A model generated the notes under the pieces. It did not search any database, was not told the DNA's origin, and worked only from the letters and a program-made list of their open reading frames with translations. Of a stretch of 64,000 nt of DNA, positions 13,115 to 61,134 are shown in pieces. A program made the translations under genes and the position numbers. Positions within the stretch are counted from its first letter, which is position 1. Each line of letters opens with the position of its first letter. The DNA is from an uncultured Verrucomicrobiae bacterium (GTDB lineage Bacteria > Verrucomicrobiota > Verrucomicrobiia > Limisphaerales > Palsa-1400), in the NCBI GenBank assembly GCA_963764165.1, contig CAVXRD010000001.1:768001-832000 (forward strand), given 5' to 3'.

Positions 13115-13674
13115 ATCTCCAAAAACCCGCTACACCCGCTACATCGTTGATTATCAACCAGATAAACCCTACAAAAAAGGTTCCTCGCCATTTTCGGTGG
13201 AATGAGACAACTCGTTAGCCGTCGTTGCGGGACAACCCATTTGGAATCCAGGCTTGGCACTGGCTTGGCCAAAGCTCGTTATAGTGTATGATCTCGAAAA
13301 AGGGGCAACACCCGCTACACGGTTGACCATCAACGAGATAAGGGGCAACAAAAATAGCAACAAACCCGCAACAGACCCGCAACATTTCTTCCCGCGCTGT
13401 CGGGTTGCATGAAACGCGGCGTCTTTCCGTCGTTCCCTGAAAATTTTCATCAAGATGCCTGCACCATCATTTGTTCCATTGAAAACAGCGAGGAACCTAC
13501 AAAAACGGCTACAGAGCCGCTACATTCGTTCCCACTGGAGCCAATTGAATGAAACAGGGTGCTTTCTTTGGCATCCCAAGGCTGTCAGCGCGGAAGCGTT
13601 GGCCATAATTCATTTCACTGAAAACAGCGGGGCACTGGCGAAGGTGTGTAACAACGTTGTTAATCAACCACTTA
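13115..13674. repeat. Degenerate array of 3-4 units with a GTTGAnnATCAAC palindromic core flanked by GCWACA repeats
   Basis: Cores at 13146-13158, 13322-13334 and 13656-13668, with a variant near 13473-13486; 13115-13180 aligns with 13291-13357. Confidence 0.7.
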
Positions 13675-13874
13675 GCCGTAAAAACTCAGTCGAAAACGGG
13701 AGCGCGACTGTCTCGGTCGCCTCCGGTCGGCGTCTCGCCGACTGGCCACCGCAGACCAAATCAGTTCACTATTTGGTGAAGCCGGGGTGAATGCAGGATG
13801 CCTTCGGCGGGACGCCGAAGGCGGCGGTCGAGACGACCGCGCTCCCCATTTTCACCTGCATGGATACGGCTTAG
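13671..13874. mobile_element. ~200-bp MITE-like element R3 (terminal inverted repeats around a REP doublet), copy A
   Basis: cttagccgta...tacggcttag ends; internal gggagcgcg...cgcgctccc doublet; homologous to 27214-27416 and 42815-43016. Confidence 0.75.
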
Positions 13875-13920
13875 ACTAGTCCGTCACAAACGATTCCTCG
13901 CCAAACCAAAACAAATAGTT

Positions 13921-14152
13921 AGGGCGCTTGCCTCGCCGCGAAAGCCAAGGGTGCAATAGCGTGCAACGCCCCGACCACGATTTTTAGCCGCCCTTCCTCA
14001 CAGTCCGTTAAAAGGCAACCGCTCCCCCTGGCGGGGAATCCGCAAAATTTCAAAGAACATGCCCTGATGGCGACAGGGAGGAACATAAGGCCGAAGCCTC
14101 TTTTGTCAATTAAGACTGCAATTGCACGCTTCTGTGGTATTATGAGGCATGA
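13921..14152 (-). ncRNA. Conserved non-coding module, copy A (promoter, boxA-like motif, hairpins); candidate structured RNA
   Basis: Reverse complement aligns along its length with 60881-61134. TTGACA-N16-TATGTT, TGTTCTTTGAAA, stem 14011-14020 with 13986-13995. Confidence 0.5.
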
Positions 14153-14332
14153 CAAACGAAACATAATTGCAGCACTAATTCTACCCGATTTCCTGCTTCC
14201 CGCATGGCCCCGCGATTGGACGGTGTCTCCGGCGGAAGCTAAGACGGAACGGGGCGGAATTGACAGGGGAGTTTTTCGGTGAGGAACTCTGCGTTCTCTG
14301 CGCGTCTGCGCGAGATTGCGATTCGTGCCACG

Positions 14333-14445
14333 ATGAAACCAAAGGAGATCACTGTCCAGATCGTCGATACCGCTTGTCGCGTTTTGGCTGGCGCGAATCA
14401 AGGACGGTATCACACACTGCGTCGACGGCCTGCCGGAGGAAAAGA
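14333..14445 (+). pseudogene. Internally deleted GxxExxY protein gene
   Basis: MKPKEITVQIVDTACRV (GxxExxY-like N-terminus) directly followed, in another frame, by ARIKDGITHCVDGLPEE (C-terminus-like); flanked by ctctgcg/cgcagag repeats. Confidence 0.65.
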
Positions 14446-14670
14446 ATTATCGCGCAGAGAAGATGAGTGCGCAGAGGCAAACAAAGACAAACCGCTCTCC
14501 ACTGAAAACGGTGAGGATCGGTCACAGTGCGGCATCTGATTGACGCCACCGGGCCATGCGCGTTTCAGGAGTTTGGTGAAGTTTTCGCGTGCTTTTTTTA
14601 GCTCTGTAAGCAGAATTATTACACTTTAGTTGAAAGCCATCACGAAATTTAACGACGAAAGAATTGCGAA

Positions 14671-52780: not shown

Positions 52781-53230
52781 TCACTGCTTCAGCCGGAAGA
52801 ATAAATTTCCGGCCGGAGCAGTGACAATGATGCTGTTAGTGCCGTTGGCAGACGTTATGGTGAAATTGCTTGCCGTCCAAACGCCCGCGCTCAAATTCGA
52901 CGTTTGCTGCAGCGTGTAAGTGTTGGTGTTCGCGTCCGGCCAAAGCACCTTGACACTGTGGGGCCCGTTGGGCGCGATGAGAAGGTTGGGAAGGCCCGGC
53001 TGCGGCACGGCTTGGACGCTCCAGAAGCCTCCCGTGACACTGAAAGAGCCGCCGCTCATGGCCGCGCCTGCATCGGGTTGGCCGATGGTTCCGCTCAGCG
53101 CAAATGGGCCGTTGGTGCTGGTGCCGCCGCCACCTGCAATCTTATACCAGTTGATTGAGTAGCTTTGGGCCGAGGCCCGCAGGCAAAGGACGCCGGCGCC
53201 TATTAAGATAGCAATGGCTTTCAGTTTCAT
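52781..53230 (-). CDS. Small secreted partner protein (GGGG...SGTIGQPDAG...GGFW domain + C-terminal sorting-like domain)
   Basis: Signal peptide; TAATG coupling to the S74 gene; ends in LFFRLKQ. Confidence 0.85.
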   Translation of the reverse strand: MKLKAIAILIGAGVLCLRASAQSYSINWYKIAGGGGTSTNGPFALSGTIGQPDAGAAMSGGSFSVTGGFWSVQAVPQPGLPNLLIAPNGPHSVKVLWPDANTNTYTLQQTSNLSAGVWTASNFTITSANGTNSIIVTAPAGNLFFRLKQ

Positions 53231-56200
53231 TATTTGTCTCCAGTTGCGAGTTTAAGGAGCTTTTCCAATTTCTCCACGCGGGCGGCCAATGCCGCGTTCT
53301 GCTGTTCCAACTTCTGGTTCAACCCCTGAATCGCCGCCAAAGCCACACCTTCCTCGTCCACCGTAGCGATATGCCTATCGTCCGGGCCGAGATTGAAGGC
53401 GGCATGGAAATCCTGGGCCATGGGGCCGATGTGATCCTGCGTGCGATCCTCTTTGAAGTTCCACTGGCTGACCGGCAGAGCGGCGACTTTAGCCAACACT
53501 TCCTGCGGGTTCACGGGCTTGAAATGTTCCTTCGCGTTGCGATCGCTGGTGGTGACGAATGTGGTCGCGGCACAACTGCCACTCACCTGAAGAGGATAAC
53601 CAGGAGTGGTCGTGCCGATGCCGACGTTGTTGGCGATCAGCGCGAGAGGCGCGCCGCCAATACCTTGCTTGAAGGACTGGATTTGCGCATAGCCAGCAGC
53701 GGTGCTGTTCGTGAAGTAACCCAACAAAAGCTCTCCCGCTGTCGTTCCGAGCCCCCCACTGCTCGCTACGATGACTTGCGGCGATCCTGGGTTGCCGGCG
53801 GACTGGACGACCAACGGATTTCCAAACGCCTCGGTGCCGGTGCCAATGCCAATATTGCCGCTAAAGACATTGCTTGCGCCAGCAAAGGTGTTGCCACCCG
53901 CGAGCAACGCCACGCCGGTCAAATTGGTCCCGCTAATGGCAGGCAATGCCCCGGTCAGATTTGACGCCGTCAAGCTGGTTAAACGAGCGCCGTTGATGGC
54001 GGGCAGGGCGCCGACCAGATTTGAAGCTGGCAGGTTGGTCAAATTGGCCCCACTGAGGGTTGGCAACACGCCAACAAGATTCGACGCCTGCAAGTTGGTC
54101 AGATTGGCTCCGCTGATGGCGGGCAGTGGGCCGCTCAGATTGGAAGCCCTCAAGTTGGTTAAATTAGCCCCGCTGAGGGCAGGCAGGACGCCTGCCAGGT
54201 TGGCCGCCGACAAGTTGGTCAAATTGGCCCCGCTGATGGCCGGAAAGACGCCCACCAGGTTGGCCGCTGGCAAGTTGGTCAAATTGGCCCCACTGATGGC
54301 CGGAAAGACGCCCACCAAGTTGGCCGCCGGCAAGTTGGTCAAATTGGCCCCACTGATGGCGGGAAAGGCGCCGGTCAGATTTGAAGCCGTCAAGTTGGTC
54401 AGATTCATACCGTTATTGCTGCTTAGCGTCTGCAGGTTGGCCGGCAAGACGGCGTTCGCCAGCGTCCCGACCGTCAGTGAGGCCGCGTTCAGGTTGGTGA
54501 GGTTCACGCCGGATCCGTTGAAGCTCGTGGCCGTCACTGGGCCGGCGGTGGTGAAACCGCCCGCCGTAATGGTGCCTGCAGTCGTGGCCTGCGAAATGCT
54601 AAAAGTGATCACCGCCAAGCCGTCAGCGCCCGGGCTTTGCACGTTACCGCCGGTTCCGTTCGGAAAGACATAGGATGGATCGCCGGAATTGCCCGCCGCG
54701 GTGTTGGTTCCCCCAATGATTATTGTCCCATAAGAGCCGCCGCCACCTCCGCCGTTCTGATAAGCAGCACTTCCAGAACCGCCACCCCCGAATCCACCGC
54801 CGCCTCCACCGGCGTCACCGACTTCGAAGCCCCCGTTTCCATTGGCGGAGCTTGGAGAACTGATGCCCACATTGGTTGCTCCCGTGGCGTAATTGCCGCC
54901 AACTGCCCCGTCCACGCCGCCCTGGCCTCCAAGGCCGTTATAGCCGCCTGCGCCGCCAGGCCCGCTGCCGTTGGCAATTCCTGTTTGGCCAGGGTTGCCT
55001 CCGGCCCCGCCCGATCCCGCCGCACCCGCGCCACCGCCGCCTCCCGCCACCGCTTCGGTGATGTAGTTGCTGCCGTTGAGATAAAACAATGAGCTGGCCT
55101 GTCCGCCTTGGGCGACTTCGTCACCTGCGGTGGCGTTGCCTCCCATCGCATCTCCAGAGCCATTTCCGCCTCCGTGGTTGTCGTTATAGTCCCCGTGCTG
55201 GCCGACCACGACAAGGAAAGTCTGTCCTGCGACGACATTGAACGTTTGTTCGACGAAAGCTCCTCCGCCCCCGGTGCTCCCAAATAAGCCCTCGCCGCCG
55301 CCGCCGCCCGCGCCCCATAACTTGGCGGTCATTTGCGTGGCGCCCGGGGGTGCCACCACCGTATTGATGCTGGCCGACAAAAAGATATTCGTTTGGCTGA
55401 CCGGAGTGGTCAAAAGAACGTTGGCGGGCAGGAGAGACGATGAAATTGTCCCGCTTGAAAGTTGCGTGGCATTGAGATTGGTCAAGCCGCCGCCATCGCC
55501 GCTCAAGATGGCATTGGTGATGGAGACACCCGCCGCCACGCTGTTGGCCAGGGTGGCGGTGCTGGCGTTGCCGGCCAAAGTGCCGGTAAATGCGCCTCCC
55601 AGGGTCACGCCTGTTTCCGTGTTCGTCACCACTGCGGCGGGCATCTGGGCCAGGGAAATGGTTCCGCTGGAGATTTGTGAGGCATTGAGATTGCTTAACC
55701 CGCTGCCGTCGCCTGCAAATGAAGCCGCCGCAATGATCCCAGAAGCAGTTGCTTCCGGCGCGCTAAAGGTGATGACGACCAGACCATCGGCCCCCGGGCT
55801 GGCTTGGCCGCCGCCGGTTCCGTTGGGAGAAAGATAGGATGGATCACCAGTATTACCTGGAGCGTTGTTGGTTCCCGCAACGACAATGGCTCCATAAGAG
55901 CCGCCGCCGCCGCTGCCAGCGTAGGCGGTACCGGAACCGCCACCGCCAAAACCGCCACCGCCACCGCCATACTGGCTTCCGCCGCCGCCCCCGTCTCCAT
56001 CAGCGGAGCCTAAAGAACTGATACCCGCATTGGTCGCGCCGCTGGCGTAATTGCCGCCGGCAACGCCCCCGCCTGATCCGGCCGCGCCTCCGACACCGTC
56101 ATAACCGCCCCCGCCGCTCAAGGCGCCGTAGGTCGTTTGGCCGGGATTGCCTCCCGCGCCGCCGGATTCCCCGTAGTCCGCGCCGCCGCCCCCTCCCGCC

Positions 56201-57153
56201 ACCGCTTCGGTGATATAGTTGGCGCCGCTGAGATAAAACAATGAGCTGGCCTGTCCGCCCTGGCCGGCCTCGCTGTAGGGGGCTGCACTGCCTCCCGCGG
56301 CGTCTCCAGAATCGCTTCCTCCCGCGCCGCTGTCGTTATAGTCCCCGTGCTGGCCGACCACGACGAGGAAAGTCTGTCCGGGCACGACATTGATCGTTTG
56401 TTGCACGAAAGCTCCGGCACCGCCAGTCGCCCCGGCACCCCCCCCGCCGCCACCGCCTCCAGCGCCCCATAGTTTGGCCGTCAAGACCGTGGCGCCGAAG
56501 GGCACAGTCAATATATTAGTGCCGGCGGACGAGTAAACATTCGTTTGCAGGCCGGTCATCACGGTCGTCAGGACGTTTGATGGGAGGAGAGACGTCGAAA
56601 TGGTCCCGGTCGAGAGTTGGGTGGCGTTGAGGTTGGTCAGCGCCGCGCCGTTGCCGCTCAAGGTGCCGCTGATGCTAAGCCCGCTTTCGCCGTTTGTCAC
56701 CACCGCCGCAGGCAACTGCGCCAGCGCAATCGCGCCCGTGAAGCTGGCGGCTGTCCCTGCCGCTGGCGCATACATAGCGTAGGGCGTGGGAGTAATCGGC
56801 TGGAACGGGCTTAAAGCGGCGAAGCTCCCGCCCCCGTTGGTTCGCACCTCCACCTGAAGCCAGTAATGATTGCCGTTGAAGAAGCCGCCACCGAAATCCA
56901 GACTGACTGAGAATGAGCCATCGCTAACTGCCGTGGCCGTCTCCGTGATGGTCTGCGACACGGGCATGCCGGTGTCCCGGTTGGAGCTGGAGTATAAGGT
57001 AAAGGCCATGTCGTAACTGCCATTGGCCGGCGCGCCTCCGCTGGTCAGGAATCCTTGATAGGTGAAGGCCGTCCCTTGGGCGTGGGCCGTCAAGGCAGCC
57101 AGAGTGAATAGCAACAGACCCACCATTATCTTCATTACTTTTTTCATAATCAT
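53230..57153 (-). CDS. Secreted fibre-like protein: N-terminal TAFTYQG domain, two glycine-rich domains, 20-aa repeat stalk, C-terminal peptidase S74 chaperone
   Basis: Signal peptide AHA/QG; AKLWGAGGGGG twice; TTSDRNAKE...HIGPMAQDF...coiled coil. Start 57153 or 57147. Confidence 0.88.
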   Translation of the reverse strand: MIMKKVMKIMVGLLLFTLAALTAHAQGTAFTYQGFLTSGGAPANGSYDMAFTLYSSSNRDTGMPVSQTITETATAVSDGSFSVSLDFGGGFFNGNHYWLQVEVRTNGGGSFAALSPFQPITPTPYAMYAPAAGTAASFTGAIALAQLPAAVVTNGESGLSISGTLSGNGAALTNLNATQLSTGTISTSLLPSNVLTTVMTGLQTNVYSSAGTNILTVPFGATVLTAKLWGAGGGGGGGGAGATGGAGAFVQQTINVVPGQTFLVVVGQHGDYNDSGAGGSDSGDAAGGSAAPYSEAGQGGQASSLFYLSGANYITEAVAGGGGGADYGESGGAGGNPGQTTYGALSGGGGYDGVGGAAGSGGGVAGGNYASGATNAGISSLGSADGDGGGGGSQYGGGGGGFGGGGSGTAYAGSGGGGSYGAIVVAGTNNAPGNTGDPSYLSPNGTGGGQASPGADGLVVITFSAPEATASGIIAAASFAGDGSGLSNLNASQISSGTISLAQMPAAVVTNTETGVTLGGAFTGTLAGNASTATLANSVAAGVSITNAILSGDGGGLTNLNATQLSSGTISSSLLPANVLLTTPVSQTNIFLSASINTVVAPPGATQMTAKLWGAGGGGGEGLFGSTGGGGAFVEQTFNVVAGQTFLVVVGQHGDYNDNHGGGNGSGDAMGGNATAGDEVAQGGQASSLFYLNGSNYITEAVAGGGGGAGAAGSGGAGGNPGQTGIANGSGPGGAGGYNGLGGQGGVDGAVGGNYATGATNVGISSPSSANGNGGFEVGDAGGGGGGFGGGGSGSAAYQNGGGGGGSYGTIIIGGTNTAAGNSGDPSYVFPNGTGGNVQSPGADGLAVITFSISQATTAGTITAGGFTTAGPVTATSFNGSGVNLTNLNAASLTVGTLANAVLPANLQTLSSNNGMNLTNLTASNLTGAFPAISGANLTNLPAANLVGVFPAISGANLTNLPAANLVGVFPAISGANLTNLSAANLAGVLPALSGANLTNLRASNLSGPLPAISGANLTNLQASNLVGVLPTLSGANLTNLPASNLVGALPAINGARLTSLTASNLTGALPAISGTNLTGVALLAGGNTFAGASNVFSGNIGIGTGTEAFGNPLVVQSAGNPGSPQVIVASSGGLGTTAGELLLGYFTNSTAAGYAQIQSFKQGIGGAPLALIANNVGIGTTTPGYPLQVSGSCAATTFVTTSDRNAKEHFKPVNPQEVLAKVAALPVSQWNFKEDRTQDHIGPMAQDFHAAFNLGPDDRHIATVDEEGVALAAIQGLNQKLEQQNAALAARVEKLEKLLKLATGDK
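53929..54408 (-). repeat. Eight tandem 60-bp (20-aa) coding repeats, consensus ANLTNLxAxNLxGxLPAISG
   Basis: Visible 60-bp periodicity (caagttggtcaaattggccc on successive lines). Confidence 0.92.
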
Positions 57154-57601: not shown

Positions 57602-60600
57602 TTATTTTATCAAGGCGTTTTTGGCGGTCATCATTTGCTCCAGCTTTTCCAGTCGGGACCGCAACTCCTGAACCTCCGCGTCTTTTTCCTTCAACGCTTT
57701 TTCCGCGCCTTCCAGCTTTTGGTTCAATCCTTGAATCGCGGCCAGCGCGACGCCGGTTTCGTCCACCACGGAAATGTGTTTTTCATCCGAACCGTTCAAC
57801 TTAAACGCGGCATGGAAATCCTGCGCCATGGGGCCGATGTGCGGCTGGCCCTGTGCCGCTTTGTAGTTCCATTTCGTCACGGGCAGCGCCACGACTTTTT
57901 CCAAAACCTCGAGCGGATTGACGGCGGCGAAATTTTCCTTGGCCGTCCGGTCGCTGGTGTAGTCAAACGCCTGGCCGTAAACGGGGCCATAGCAGTAAAC
58001 CTCGCTGGTGGCTATGACAGCGCTCACCTGAATCGAGCCGCCGGAATATGCATTCGCCGTGATCGTCGCTCCGTTGAGTGAGGCTGCGGTGGTGGTCCCG
58101 TTCAACGTCACGTTGCTTAACGTCACGCCTGATTCATTGTTCGTTACCACGGCGGAGGGCAATTGCGCCAGCGGCACGGTGCCGGTGGTCAGTTGGGAGG
58201 CATTCAAGTCGGTCAAGCTCGCTCCGCTTATGGCGGGCAGCGAGCCCACCAATTTGGATGCGTTCAGATTGGTCAATCCACTGCCATCACCCGAAAATCC
58301 CGCCGCCGAAATGTAAACTGTGGGTATGGTTTGCACGATGCTGAAAGTGATCACCACCAAGCCATCCGCGCCCGCGGCCTGTGATGCGCCGCCAGTTGCG
58401 CTGGGAGAAGTGTAGGACGAATCGCCAGTATTGCCGGGAACATTGCCGTTTCCTCCGACAATGATCGATCCATAAGAGCCGCCGCCACCGCCGCCGCCGA
58501 ATGCGTATTGGGATCCGCCACCGCCGCCGCCGTATCCGCCGCCGCCTCCTCCGTCACTGCCTCCGGGCGCGGCGTATCCGCCGCTGCCGCCTGCGGCACT
58601 CACGGAAGCCAGGCCCGCATTGGTCGCCGTGCTGGCGTAATTGCCGCCCGCGCCTGAAGCGGATGAACCGGCGGCGCCACCGAGGCCGTTGCCGCCTCCG
58701 CCACCGCCGCCAGTCAGTGTTTGGCCCGGATTGCCTCCCGCTCCCCCGGAATAAGAGTATCCCCCTCCTCCTCCTCCTCCCGCGATCGCTTTGACAATAT
58801 AATTGACTCCGTTTTGGTAAAACAGCGAGCTGGCTTGGCCGCCCTGGCCGAGACCGCCGCCACCGGAGCTTTGTCCACCCGCGGCGTCGCCGGAACCGGC
58901 ACCGCCGGCATTATTATCCGAACTATCCCCGTGCTGGCCGACCACCACCAAAAAGGTCTGTCCCGGCGCGACATCGACGGATTGTTCGACAAACGCCCCC
59001 GCGCCCCCGCTCACACCGGAACCGTGGCCTCCGCCCCCGCCCGCGCCCCACAATTTGGCGGTCATGAGCGTGGCATTGGGCGGCACCGTGACCGTGATTG
59101 TTCCCGCCGAGGAATAGACATTCGTTTGGATTGCATTCGTCTGCGCGCCCACCAGCACGGTGGTGAAGATATTGGTTGGGAGAATGGAGGCCGGCAATGC
59201 GCCGCCGACAAGGCTGGAAGTATTCACATTCGTGAGGCCCGCGCCGGAACCGCTGAAACCGGCCGCCGCAATGGCTGACGATGTCGTCGTCTCAAAGCCG
59301 CCAAACGTGATCACCACCAAGCCATCAGCGCCGGGAGTCTGCACTTGTCCGCCCGAACCGTTGGGAATGATGTAGGACGGGTCGCCGGTGTTGCCGGCGT
59401 TGTAGTTGGTTCCGCCAATGATGGTCGCGCCATACGAGCCGCCACCGCCGCCGCCGGATTGCGAACTGCCTCCGCTGGCGCCGCCGCCGAAACCGCCACC
59501 ACCGCCGCCGCTGCCGGTTGTGGAGACGGCGCTTCCACCTTGGCCGTCGACGGAGCCGAGTGATGCGATGCCGGTATTGGTGGCTGCGGCAGAGTAATTG
59601 TCACCTGCGGTCCCTCCCGGCACGGATGCTCCCCCGATGCCATTGGAGCCTCCGGTTCCTCCAGCGCTGGCACCCGCCTGGCCAGGGTTGCCACCGGCGC
59701 CTCCGTTGACGGAAGCGTTTGCCGCGCCAGCGCCTCCGCCCCCTCCCGCCACCGCCACGGTGAGATAGTTTGTGCCGCTGTTAAGAAACAAAGAGCTGGC
59801 CTGTCCACCCTCGCCAGCCTTGGCGCCAGGATTGACGATGCCTCCCGAGGCGTCTCCCGAACCGATCCCGCCCCCATTGTTGTTGTTCGTGTAATTCCCG
59901 TGCTGGCCGACGACGACGGTGAACGTTTGTCCCGGCACGACAGCGAGGGACATTTGTGAGAATGCCCCTGCGCCTCCGGTGGACGCCAAACCGCCGCCGC
60001 CACCCGCGCCCCATAATTTGGCGGTCATGTTCGTGGCTCCGGCAGGCACCATTAGCATCGTGACTCCGGCCGTCGAATATACATTCGATTGAATGATGGT
60101 CCGAACCGTCGTCAGGACGTTGGATGGAAGCAGCGACGATGAAATGGCGCCGCTGGAAAGTTGCGAGGCGTTGAGATTGGTCAGGCCGCCGCCGTTTCCA
60201 ACGAAGTTGCCACTGATGCTGAGCCCGGTTTCGCCATTGGTTACCAAGGACGCCGGCAGCTGTGCCAATGAAATCGGCCCGGAAACGCTGGCCGCCGCAC
60301 CGGCGGTGGGCGCGTAAATGGCATAGGGAGTTGGGGTGATGGGCTGGAGTGGGCTCAATGCAGCGAACCCGCTTCCACCATTGGTCTGCACCGCCACCAG
60401 CAGCCAGGCATCGCCGCCGCTGAAGACATTCCCGAAATCGAGACTGACGGTAAAGAGTCCGTTGCTGACCGCGACGGCCGTGTTGGTGATCGGCCCGGCC
60501 ACTGGAGCGCCACCGTTGGCGCTGGCGCAGAGGCTGAATGCCAAATCAAAACTGCCGTTGGCAGGAACGCCGCCGCTGGTCAATGAACCTTGATACGTGA

Positions 60601-60697
60601 AAGCCGTGCCTTGCGCACGGGCTGAAAAGGCGGCCAGGGAGAAGAGCAGCATGCTCCATGTTGTTCTCAGTATTGTCTTCATGGCAATTGGCTTCAT
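57602..60697 (-). CDS. Paralogous secreted glycine-rich fibre protein with C-terminal peptidase S74 chaperone
   Basis: ARA/QGTAFTYQG, two AKLWGAGGGGG domains, YTSDRTAKE...HIGPMAQDF. Start 60697 or 60682. Confidence 0.88.
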   Translation of the reverse strand: MKPIAMKTILRTTWSMLLFSLAAFSARAQGTAFTYQGSLTSGGVPANGSFDLAFSLCASANGGAPVAGPITNTAVAVSNGLFTVSLDFGNVFSGGDAWLLVAVQTNGGSGFAALSPLQPITPTPYAIYAPTAGAAASVSGPISLAQLPASLVTNGETGLSISGNFVGNGGGLTNLNASQLSSGAISSSLLPSNVLTTVRTIIQSNVYSTAGVTMLMVPAGATNMTAKLWGAGGGGGLASTGGAGAFSQMSLAVVPGQTFTVVVGQHGNYTNNNNGGGIGSGDASGGIVNPGAKAGEGGQASSLFLNSGTNYLTVAVAGGGGGAGAANASVNGGAGGNPGQAGASAGGTGGSNGIGGASVPGGTAGDNYSAAATNTGIASLGSVDGQGGSAVSTTGSGGGGGGFGGGASGGSSQSGGGGGGSYGATIIGGTNYNAGNTGDPSYIIPNGSGGQVQTPGADGLVVITFGGFETTTSSAIAAAGFSGSGAGLTNVNTSSLVGGALPASILPTNIFTTVLVGAQTNAIQTNVYSSAGTITVTVPPNATLMTAKLWGAGGGGGHGSGVSGGAGAFVEQSVDVAPGQTFLVVVGQHGDSSDNNAGGAGSGDAAGGQSSGGGGLGQGGQASSLFYQNGVNYIVKAIAGGGGGGGYSYSGGAGGNPGQTLTGGGGGGGNGLGGAAGSSASGAGGNYASTATNAGLASVSAAGGSGGYAAPGGSDGGGGGGYGGGGGGSQYAFGGGGGGGSYGSIIVGGNGNVPGNTGDSSYTSPSATGGASQAAGADGLVVITFSIVQTIPTVYISAAGFSGDGSGLTNLNASKLVGSLPAISGASLTDLNASQLTTGTVPLAQLPSAVVTNNESGVTLSNVTLNGTTTAASLNGATITANAYSGGSIQVSAVIATSEVYCYGPVYGQAFDYTSDRTAKENFAAVNPLEVLEKVVALPVTKWNYKAAQGQPHIGPMAQDFHAAFKLNGSDEKHISVVDETGVALAAIQGLNQKLEGAEKALKEKDAEVQELRSRLEKLEQMMTAKNALIK

Positions 60698-60750
60698 TTC
60701 TGTTTGTTGGAATTCGACGCGTGATTGGCAACGCCACATCCTAACCAGCA

Positions 60751-60880: not shown

Positions 60881-61134
60881 TCATGTTTTCACGATACCAC
60901 CAAAGCGTGCAATTGCATTCTTTTTTGACAAAAACATCCATTCGGCCTTATGTTTCTCGGTGTCGCCGCCAGGCGTGTTCTTTGACATTTTGCGGATTTC
61001 GCCATCAGGGGAGCAGTTGTTCTTAACGGACAGTTAGGAAGAGCAACTCATTAAATCGTGATCGGAGTCTTGCACTATTGCACTCTATTGCACCCTATTG
61101 CACCCTTGGTTTTCGCGCCAAGGCATCACCCTCC
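60881..61134 (+). ncRNA. Conserved non-coding module, copy B (promoter, boxA-like motif, hairpins, TATTGCAC repeats); candidate structured RNA
   Basis: TGCAATTGCA 60908-60917, TTGACA 60925 - N18 - TATGTT 60949, TGTTCTTTGACA 60976-60987, stem 61015-61024 with 61039-61048. Confidence 0.5.

Follow-up and report, generated by a model that had tools for sequence, protein, structure and literature searches.

The boxA antitermination signal is familiar from several settings: rRNA operons, suhB, the leaders of CRISPR arrays and lambdoid phages. Small terminases are oligomers whose helix-turn-helix domains bind repeated sites; Mu gp27 (DUF3486) is a small terminase with a pac site in Mu, and some phages couple transcription to the initiation of packaging. 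Phage satellites (PICI/SaPI) encode their own TerS and pac, and Correia elements and bacterial MITEs are dispersed intergenic repeats that carry promoters. According to one article (PMC13753749), boxA loads NusB:S10 and occurs at suhB and CRISPR operons, and a small hairpin stands directly before boxA in the rrn operons of B. subtilis.

The window (the whole stretch of DNA that was analysed, 64,000 nucleotides from the genome of an uncultured Verrucomicrobiae bacterium, here G000) holds two copies, A and B, of an element that is very probably a selected, likely mobile module of promoter, hairpin, boxA and array, a conclusion much firmer than any account of how it moves. In the openly available literature that our search covered, we found no description of this element. 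The genes of the window and the taxonomy of homologues likewise appear to indicate Verrucomicrobiota.

Two diverged copies of the element in the window

A preliminary description of the window had proposed two diverged copies with a shared motif order. Re-reading of the sequence bore this out: every listed motif of both copies was present at its claimed position, and both match counts of boxA to its E. coli counterpart (given below) were confirmed. The copies align with 78% identity over 198 nt (E 4e-38). Copy A consists of:

14149..14166, plus strand: 5'-end remnant of a gp27-like ORF (ATG ACA AAC GAA ACA, then stop)
14116..14143, plus strand: predicted outward promoter, CTGCAA ... TGG TATTAT, directed towards the ORF remnant (block defined by column conservation; promoter role putative)
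14126-14117, minus strand: palindrome TGCAATTGCA
14082..14109, minus strand: predicted inward sigma70-type promoter TTGACA-N16-TATGTT (TTGACA at 14109-14104, TATGTT at 14087-14082)
14060..14072, minus strand: boxB-like GC hairpin CGCC-ATCAG-GGCA, adjoining boxA
14048..14059, minus strand: boxA TGTTCTTTGAAA, 9/12 matches to E. coli, then TTTTGCG
13968..14047, minus strand: variable body, short form
14020-14011/13995-13986, minus strand: 10-bp wobble stem, within the variable body
13941..13967, minus strand: 10-bp-phased TTGCAC array (GTTGCAC-G-CTATTGCACC-CTTGG)

Copy B consists of:

60893..60918, minus strand: conserved outward-promoter/operator block, with no ORF remnant behind it
60908-60917, plus strand: palindrome site
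60925..60954, plus strand: predicted inward promoter TTGACA-N18-TATGTT (TTGACA at 60925-60930, TATGTT at 60949-60954)
60964-60975, plus strand: hairpin CGCC-GCCA-GGCG
60976-60987, plus strand: boxA TGTTCTTTGACA, 10/12 matches to E. coli, identical to the boxA of this genome's 16S-23S rRNA spacer
60988..61069, plus strand: variable body
61015-61024/61039-61048, plus strand: 10-bp stem, within the variable body
61070..61113, plus strand: four TTGCAC units in a phased array, followed by CTTGGTTTT

Neither copy overlaps any Pfam-supported gene, and each is flanked by two genes on the opposite strand. The outward promoter of copy A overlaps the palindrome, and the array of copy B ends ~55 nt from the stop codon of a convergent kinase gene.

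Other features of the window lie close to the copies or further away. Just outside copy A, an inverted-repeat remnant occupies 14300-14460; elsewhere in the family such remnants flank truncated ORFs which we take to be of the GxxExxY family. A hexamer array around an IHF-like site is found at 13640-13895, and again at G000 C4:316160-316270; there are ~127 matches to such arrays. Such hexamer arrays follow 27 of the 50 elements of this genome at a distance of up to 500 nt, and also follow two of three DUF3631 genes, so they may be a cis site of lone primase-related genes. On the minus strand, two adjacent genes (53230-57153 and 57602-60739) encode large proteins that look secreted, resemble each other at the N-terminus and each carry a Peptidase_S74 chaperone domain at the C-terminus. 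Two tandem thymidylate-kinase-like genes lie at 386-2168.

A dispersed family with a conserved head

The two copies are real, but they are a pair only as far as the window extends: an iterated nhmmer model of the head (promoters, hairpin and boxA) gave 52 matches in G000, corresponding to 50 elements, two of which are split by a ~300-bp inverted-repeat insertion in the hairpin loop. These insertions lie at G000 C1:913789-914097 and C2:1889231-1889541. In a sister population, whose genes are 89-95% identical to those of this genome, 16 of 20 metagenome matches were further copies.

Conservation was profiled over 64 unsplit copies. Across 48 copies from this genome and 16 from the sister population (the latter picked by these very motifs, so that the figures are inflated, although the 48 genome copies give the same profile), 11 of the 12 boxA columns were 92-100% conserved and the 3' stem arm of the hairpin 91-100%, as against 41-84% for the promoter-spacer columns. 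The spacing between -35 and -10 was 16-18 nt in 65/66 copies. The promoter, small hairpin and boxA of the preliminary description hold as conserved motifs across 64 copies, in heads that average just 74% identity and reach at least 95% in one of 1128 pairs.

Upstream of the -35, a block on the opposite strand has the family consensus TTGYAA-N13-TGG-TATTnT and reads as a putative second, outward promoter facing a Mu gp27-like gene. The palindrome TGCAATTGCA, for which an operator role had been suggested, did not survive the comparison: the family consensus at this place is TGTAATTGCA and shows no covariation, and the operator was rejected.

In the hairpin, three inner pairs hold in 61-64 of the 64 copies while the loop varies; because these pairs are invariant within this genome, they show no covariation. 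The stem is CGCC/GGCG here versus GGCGC-N4-GCGCC at the same place in congeners. A stem of at least 4 bp adjoins boxA in 57 of the 64 copies of this genome and the sister population, and in 22/23 congener loci versus 277/3000 random positions, a count for which the search pattern itself fixed the last three stem bases. As for boxA, the word TGYTCTTTGAHA has 49 matches in the genome; 43 lie within the element, and the boxA of the rRNA spacer accounts for one more. Outside the element, a lone promoter-like sequence directly followed by boxA at G000 C1:1316579 (+) possibly belongs to a host Nus-regulated gene.

The boxA pattern had 14, 9 and 28 matches in three of four congeners; it had none in the fourth congener or in 26 other family genomes, and the reversed control had none. 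These congener modules, detected solely by the boxA pattern and not by BLAST-type search, keep boxA and the array with a different promoter sequence. In four species, the expansions are separate. A BLAST-type search of 60 relatives with copy A gave one chance match inside a coding region. The array pattern of G000 gave three single matches in 300 genomes of the phylum (two coding, one intergenic without a module) and three coding-sequence matches in viral contigs, where the head gave none. A scan of genome contigs with the head gave three matches, namely one 16S leader and two unrelated sequences.

Two sites that are filled in the sister population hold other repeats in this genome, and one is clearly orthologous. 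The element, previously called possibly mobile, is therefore likely mobile on this presence/absence evidence. Fixed ends were not seen: no boundary was common to the 25 most similar copy pairs, in which boundaries differed from pair to pair; no terminal inverted repeats were seen, the ends having in common just a GTGYAA word; and no target-site duplication was seen in filled/empty comparisons that each offered one junction. In an orthologous copy pair, changes fall mostly in the spacers and the loop, and boxA is unchanged.

Phased arrays and lone gp27-like genes

Between the head and the array lies a body of ~30 to 500 nt, variable and made up of other repeats which we take to be REP-like and GxxExxY-flank-like. 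In copy C1:765172, an IS-type transposase gene, presumably of the IS1182 type, is inserted in the body, between head and array; as a mobiliser of the element this gene was rejected, being an insertion into the body. The 10-bp stem of copies A and B is a further component of the body: its pairing and the C-G to U-A change at pair 7 are real, and in the 10 stem-bearing copies most changes preserve pairing, but with 10 of 66 copies the stem marks a minority subfamily and was rejected as a feature of the family.

Read from the sequence, the region downstream of boxA ends in tandem 10-bp units without spacers. A CTATTGCACC array lies downstream of the head in 50/50 copies, within 2.3 kb, at a variable distance and in every case on the sense strand of the predicted transcript. 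The array model had 80 matches in the genome. For 30 of these, no head lay within 800 bp, and most of these headless arrays sit behind a second head type, B. Head B has ~45 full copies genome-wide, 22 of the 45 ending in a CTATTGCACC array, and two further gp27-like genes (G000 C1:1236179 and C2:1192456) have it as their upstream region, each gene then being followed by a 10-bp array of its own. Four array types were distinguished: CTATTGCACC, the AAAAGTG-type, AAATGTCACC and AGCAGGTAAA. The 10-bp period suggests, as a prediction from sequence, that protein binds on one face of the DNA.

On the other side of the head, a start codon lies within a few bases of the outward promoter motif. A 369-aa gp27-like ORF is intact in three copies (G000 C5:50381-51490, C4:77602 and C2:2574048) and broken or shortened in five more; by eye, a remnant of its start is present in ~30 of the 50 copies in all, copy A included. 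The 369-aa protein matches PF11985 (Mu gp27) with E 4e-5 and 24.5 bits, under the 28-bit cut-off, and the phrog_426 terminase small subunit with E 1.3e-7; in the lone proteins, the match spans the Pfam domain in full, its C-terminal end included. Its structural model is helical with a confident N-domain. Foldseek of the full 369-aa model versus the PDB gave no match at E 0.001, and the top VIA-align match of the N-domain was the G20C small terminase, a weak match (Z 4.9, rmsd 3.0, 54 aligned) tied with Myb and homeodomain folds. In a Mu-like prophage from another family (L091), a relative of the protein is encoded immediately ahead of TerL; the lone gp27-like copies of this genome have neither TerL behind them nor capsid genes. 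Lone gp27-like genes occur in 26/30 family genomes, a single one of which can have as many as 25 matches, and in 3/30 genomes of other families. Tandem pairs of such genes were also seen (L069, L071-L074, L078, L082), several with a different 10-bp unit before each gene.

The association of arrays with gp27-like genes was quantified in relatives, where 69 loci out of ~200 matches were examined and 57 had full flanks. A 10-bp-phased array lay beside 39/57 gp27-like loci versus 12/570 control windows, the loci being mutually related so that the counts are not independent events and the control windows being placed on ordinary genes of this genome. The array was just upstream at 15 of the 39 loci and at the 3' end at 24. 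Arrays phased at 10 bp that accompany gp27-like genes form a class, to which the TTGCAC repeats belong.

Several observations connect these arrays with boxA modules: i) among congener boxA loci with full flanks, a phased array was present within 700 nt in 16/19; ii) in G002 and G004, the array unit behind the boxA modules is the one that also stands behind gp27-like genes of that genome (L107, L109, L110); iii) two loci from two other genera (L068, L095) repeat the arrangement of divergent gp27-like ORF, promoter, boxA and array, although their sequence is unrelated. Other counts argue against a tight link. An antisense boxA upstream was listed for at least these two distinct loci among the 69 gp27-like loci, and gp27-like sequence was found within ~1.5 kb of just one of 23 congener boxA loci, where it was convergent. 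In this genome, the CTATTGCACC unit stands behind no intact gp27-like gene, the intact genes ending in other units, so the cognate pairing of protein and array is here a prediction.

Proposed mechanism and alternative explanations

We tentatively favour, from sequence evidence, a non-autonomous selfish module in which an antiterminated transcript would cross an array bound by a gp27-like protein, Mu-type packaging being borrowed. The layout of a promoter firing across an array, the 10-bp period and the general biology of small terminases are what favour it. Starting from direct observation (conserved motifs, the number of copies, their presence or absence in different populations, the divergent gp27-like gene of intact copies, array enrichment and a resident Mu-like prophage with terminase), the common denominator would be a promoter whose predicted transcript crosses a phased array. 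Translation of the gp27-like ORF could cover the transcript; where the gene is missing, this role could fall to an rRNA-type boxA, on which NusB/S10 would load and replace ribosome cover on untranslated RNA. The array would be a pac-like site, predicted to bind the gp27-like helix-turn-helix protein, which on the array might recruit the packaging machinery of a Mu-like phage, so that the module would spread. New intergenic sites may be reached via recombination among the many repeats and not by precise transposition; arrival at new loci is not explained by packaging alone, which counts against this reading, as do the Pfam match below cut-off and the weak fold match.

The resident Mu-like prophage lies at ~318-352 kb of G000 C4 (L182, L183) and has genes for a transposase, a MuB-like protein, Gam, TerL, portal and capsid. 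Its TerL is 81% identical to the L091 TerL, the neighbour of a gp27-like gene. Less favourable to this reading, the N-domain of its TerS is not related to gp27, so that the C-terminal tail is all that it shares with the L091 TerS, and no CTATTGCAC unit was found in the prophage region.

Alternatively, the elements might be MITE-like or mini-Mu modules that depend for movement or targeting on a MuA-type transposase, the arrays being recognised by a gp27-like domain at its C-terminus. All four close MuA-like homologues in 31 family genomes carry a C-terminal gp27-like N-domain:

L096:5656-7839, L097:1647-3884, L098:2291-4333 and L099:2479-4599: MuA-gp27 fusions

The fusions sit in Mu-like elements of ~8-10 kb with arrays at or near the ends and few structural genes, and one such element lies ~550 bp from a boxA module. 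These elements are possibly transposable satellites. On the other hand, G000 and G004, the genomes richest in modules, yielded no such fusion, and the MuA-like gene of the resident prophage differs from the fusion type; moreover, the youngest copy pairs have no common ends, and neither a terminal inverted repeat nor a target duplication was seen. We regard transposition of this kind as unlikely.

The preliminary description had proposed a structured RNA, and in modified form this idea would have the elements produce non-coding RNAs under Nus protection, with the repeated units at the 3' end serving as a decoy for a protein. The conserved hairpin and boxA and the sense-strand array (50/50 copies here, 16/19 congener loci) fit such RNAs. 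However, a structured body was not supported, since the predicted transcripts fold no better than shuffles (z +0.65 for copy A and -1.10 for copy B); the only general structure along the RNA is the 4-5-bp hairpin before boxA. The Rfam check returned no match for the whole window at gathering threshold or for the copy A region at E up to 5, ARAGORN found nothing in the window, and no terminator was obvious by eye. Furthermore, the body holds unrelated repeats and even the IS-type transposase gene, and a strict 10-bp period fits the helical phase of DNA. Decoy RNAs are distinctly unlikely.

Less probable still is a host-kept defence, in which arrays and lone small-terminase-like proteins would be decoys that spoil the packaging of Mu-like phages. 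In its favour are motif-level conservation across many loci, the full-length Pfam match of the lone proteins and the presence of Mu-like prophages in the family; yet decay has reached most copies of the gene, close populations differ in the sites that are occupied, and 50 promoters are needless for defence.

A Correia-like repeat, kept for the promoters that it offers to host neighbours and with boxA and arrays as passengers, is improbable. It would account for two promoter motifs and for the 22 of 50 copies that lie between divergent genes, as against a background of 382 divergent among 1125 gaps of at least 300 bp. However, the orientation is not fixed, 12 copies being between convergent and 16 between tandem genes (by a rough gene caller); boxA is the best-conserved part, and congeners retain boxA and array behind a promoter of different sequence. 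The mixed orientation of the 50 copies also ruled out a dedicated leader of one gene class.

Finally, neutral relics of decayed Mu-like prophage fragments would have the ragged ends, broken ORFs and patchwork bodies that are seen, but the sharp difference in conservation between motifs and spacers, the unchanged boxA of an orthologous pair and the separate expansions in four species make them very improbable.

If the packaging module is nevertheless taken as a guide, its consequences can be set out. That the elements form a new class of minimal packaging parasites in Verrucomicrobiota, consisting of a lone small-terminase gene or of its cis sites alone, is conceivable but doubtful. Their cis sites would consist of a promoter, antiterminated in the manner of rRNA operons, and of the pac-like array of 10-bp units, particular to each species, into which it fires; thanks to boxA, a copy could lose the gene and still be transcribed across the site. 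Dozens of copies, each starting the packaging of its own neighbourhood, would then amount to a genome-wide lateral-transduction network, and if the arrays act as packaging starts, chromosomal genes would have a new way of being transferred. Apart from packaging, about nine tenths of the boxA words of this genome stand in a dispersed, apparently mobile element, and the four-species expansions keep hairpin and boxA while promoter and array sequence change. The family is a natural mutagenesis set for the promoter and boxA consensus of Verrucomicrobiota, and the link between gp27 and arrays gives a testable handle on what proteins of the Mu gp27 family bind.

Comparison with known systems

At the sequence level, the element resembles an rRNA leader in having promoter, hairpin and boxA in this order, with the order and spacing of two Verrucomicrobiota 16S leaders (L039, of Puniceicoccaceae, and L057), a likeness that is not independent because both leaders were picked by the same pattern. 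Unlike a leader, it has no rRNA downstream or elsewhere in the window, and it occurs as 50 dispersed copies in a genome with one 16S locus. The head model matched nothing beyond the boxA word at the 16S loci of this genus. The element thus mimics a leader and is not a local remnant of one; descent from the 16S leader of this genome was ruled out, no homologous sequence being present in this genus.

With the boxA of CRISPR and suhB operons it shares a position outside rrn, the CRISPR boxA preceding an untranslated repeat RNA (PMC13753749). It differs in having no spacers or cas genes, and in being multicopy and apparently mobile with tandem 10-bp units.

The likeness to Mu gp27 lies in the sequence family, in the relative before TerL (L091) and in the helical N-domain with its weak TerS match, whereas the genes described here are lone and multicopy, have no TerL or capsid genes, and stand beside phased arrays. 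Like PICI/SaPI, the modules are predicted to use a helper terminase via their own TerS-like protein and cis site; unlike them, they have no integrase, att sites or primase/replication genes, measure 0.2-2 kb, occupy many loci and end raggedly. Correia elements and MITEs are likewise dispersed intergenic repeats with promoter motifs, but in the element no terminal inverted repeats or target duplication were seen, the body varies, and boxA and an array are present. Defining features are lacking in each comparison, be it with rRNA or CRISPR leaders, structured RNA families, MITEs or PICIs, while the element borrows parts of several of them.
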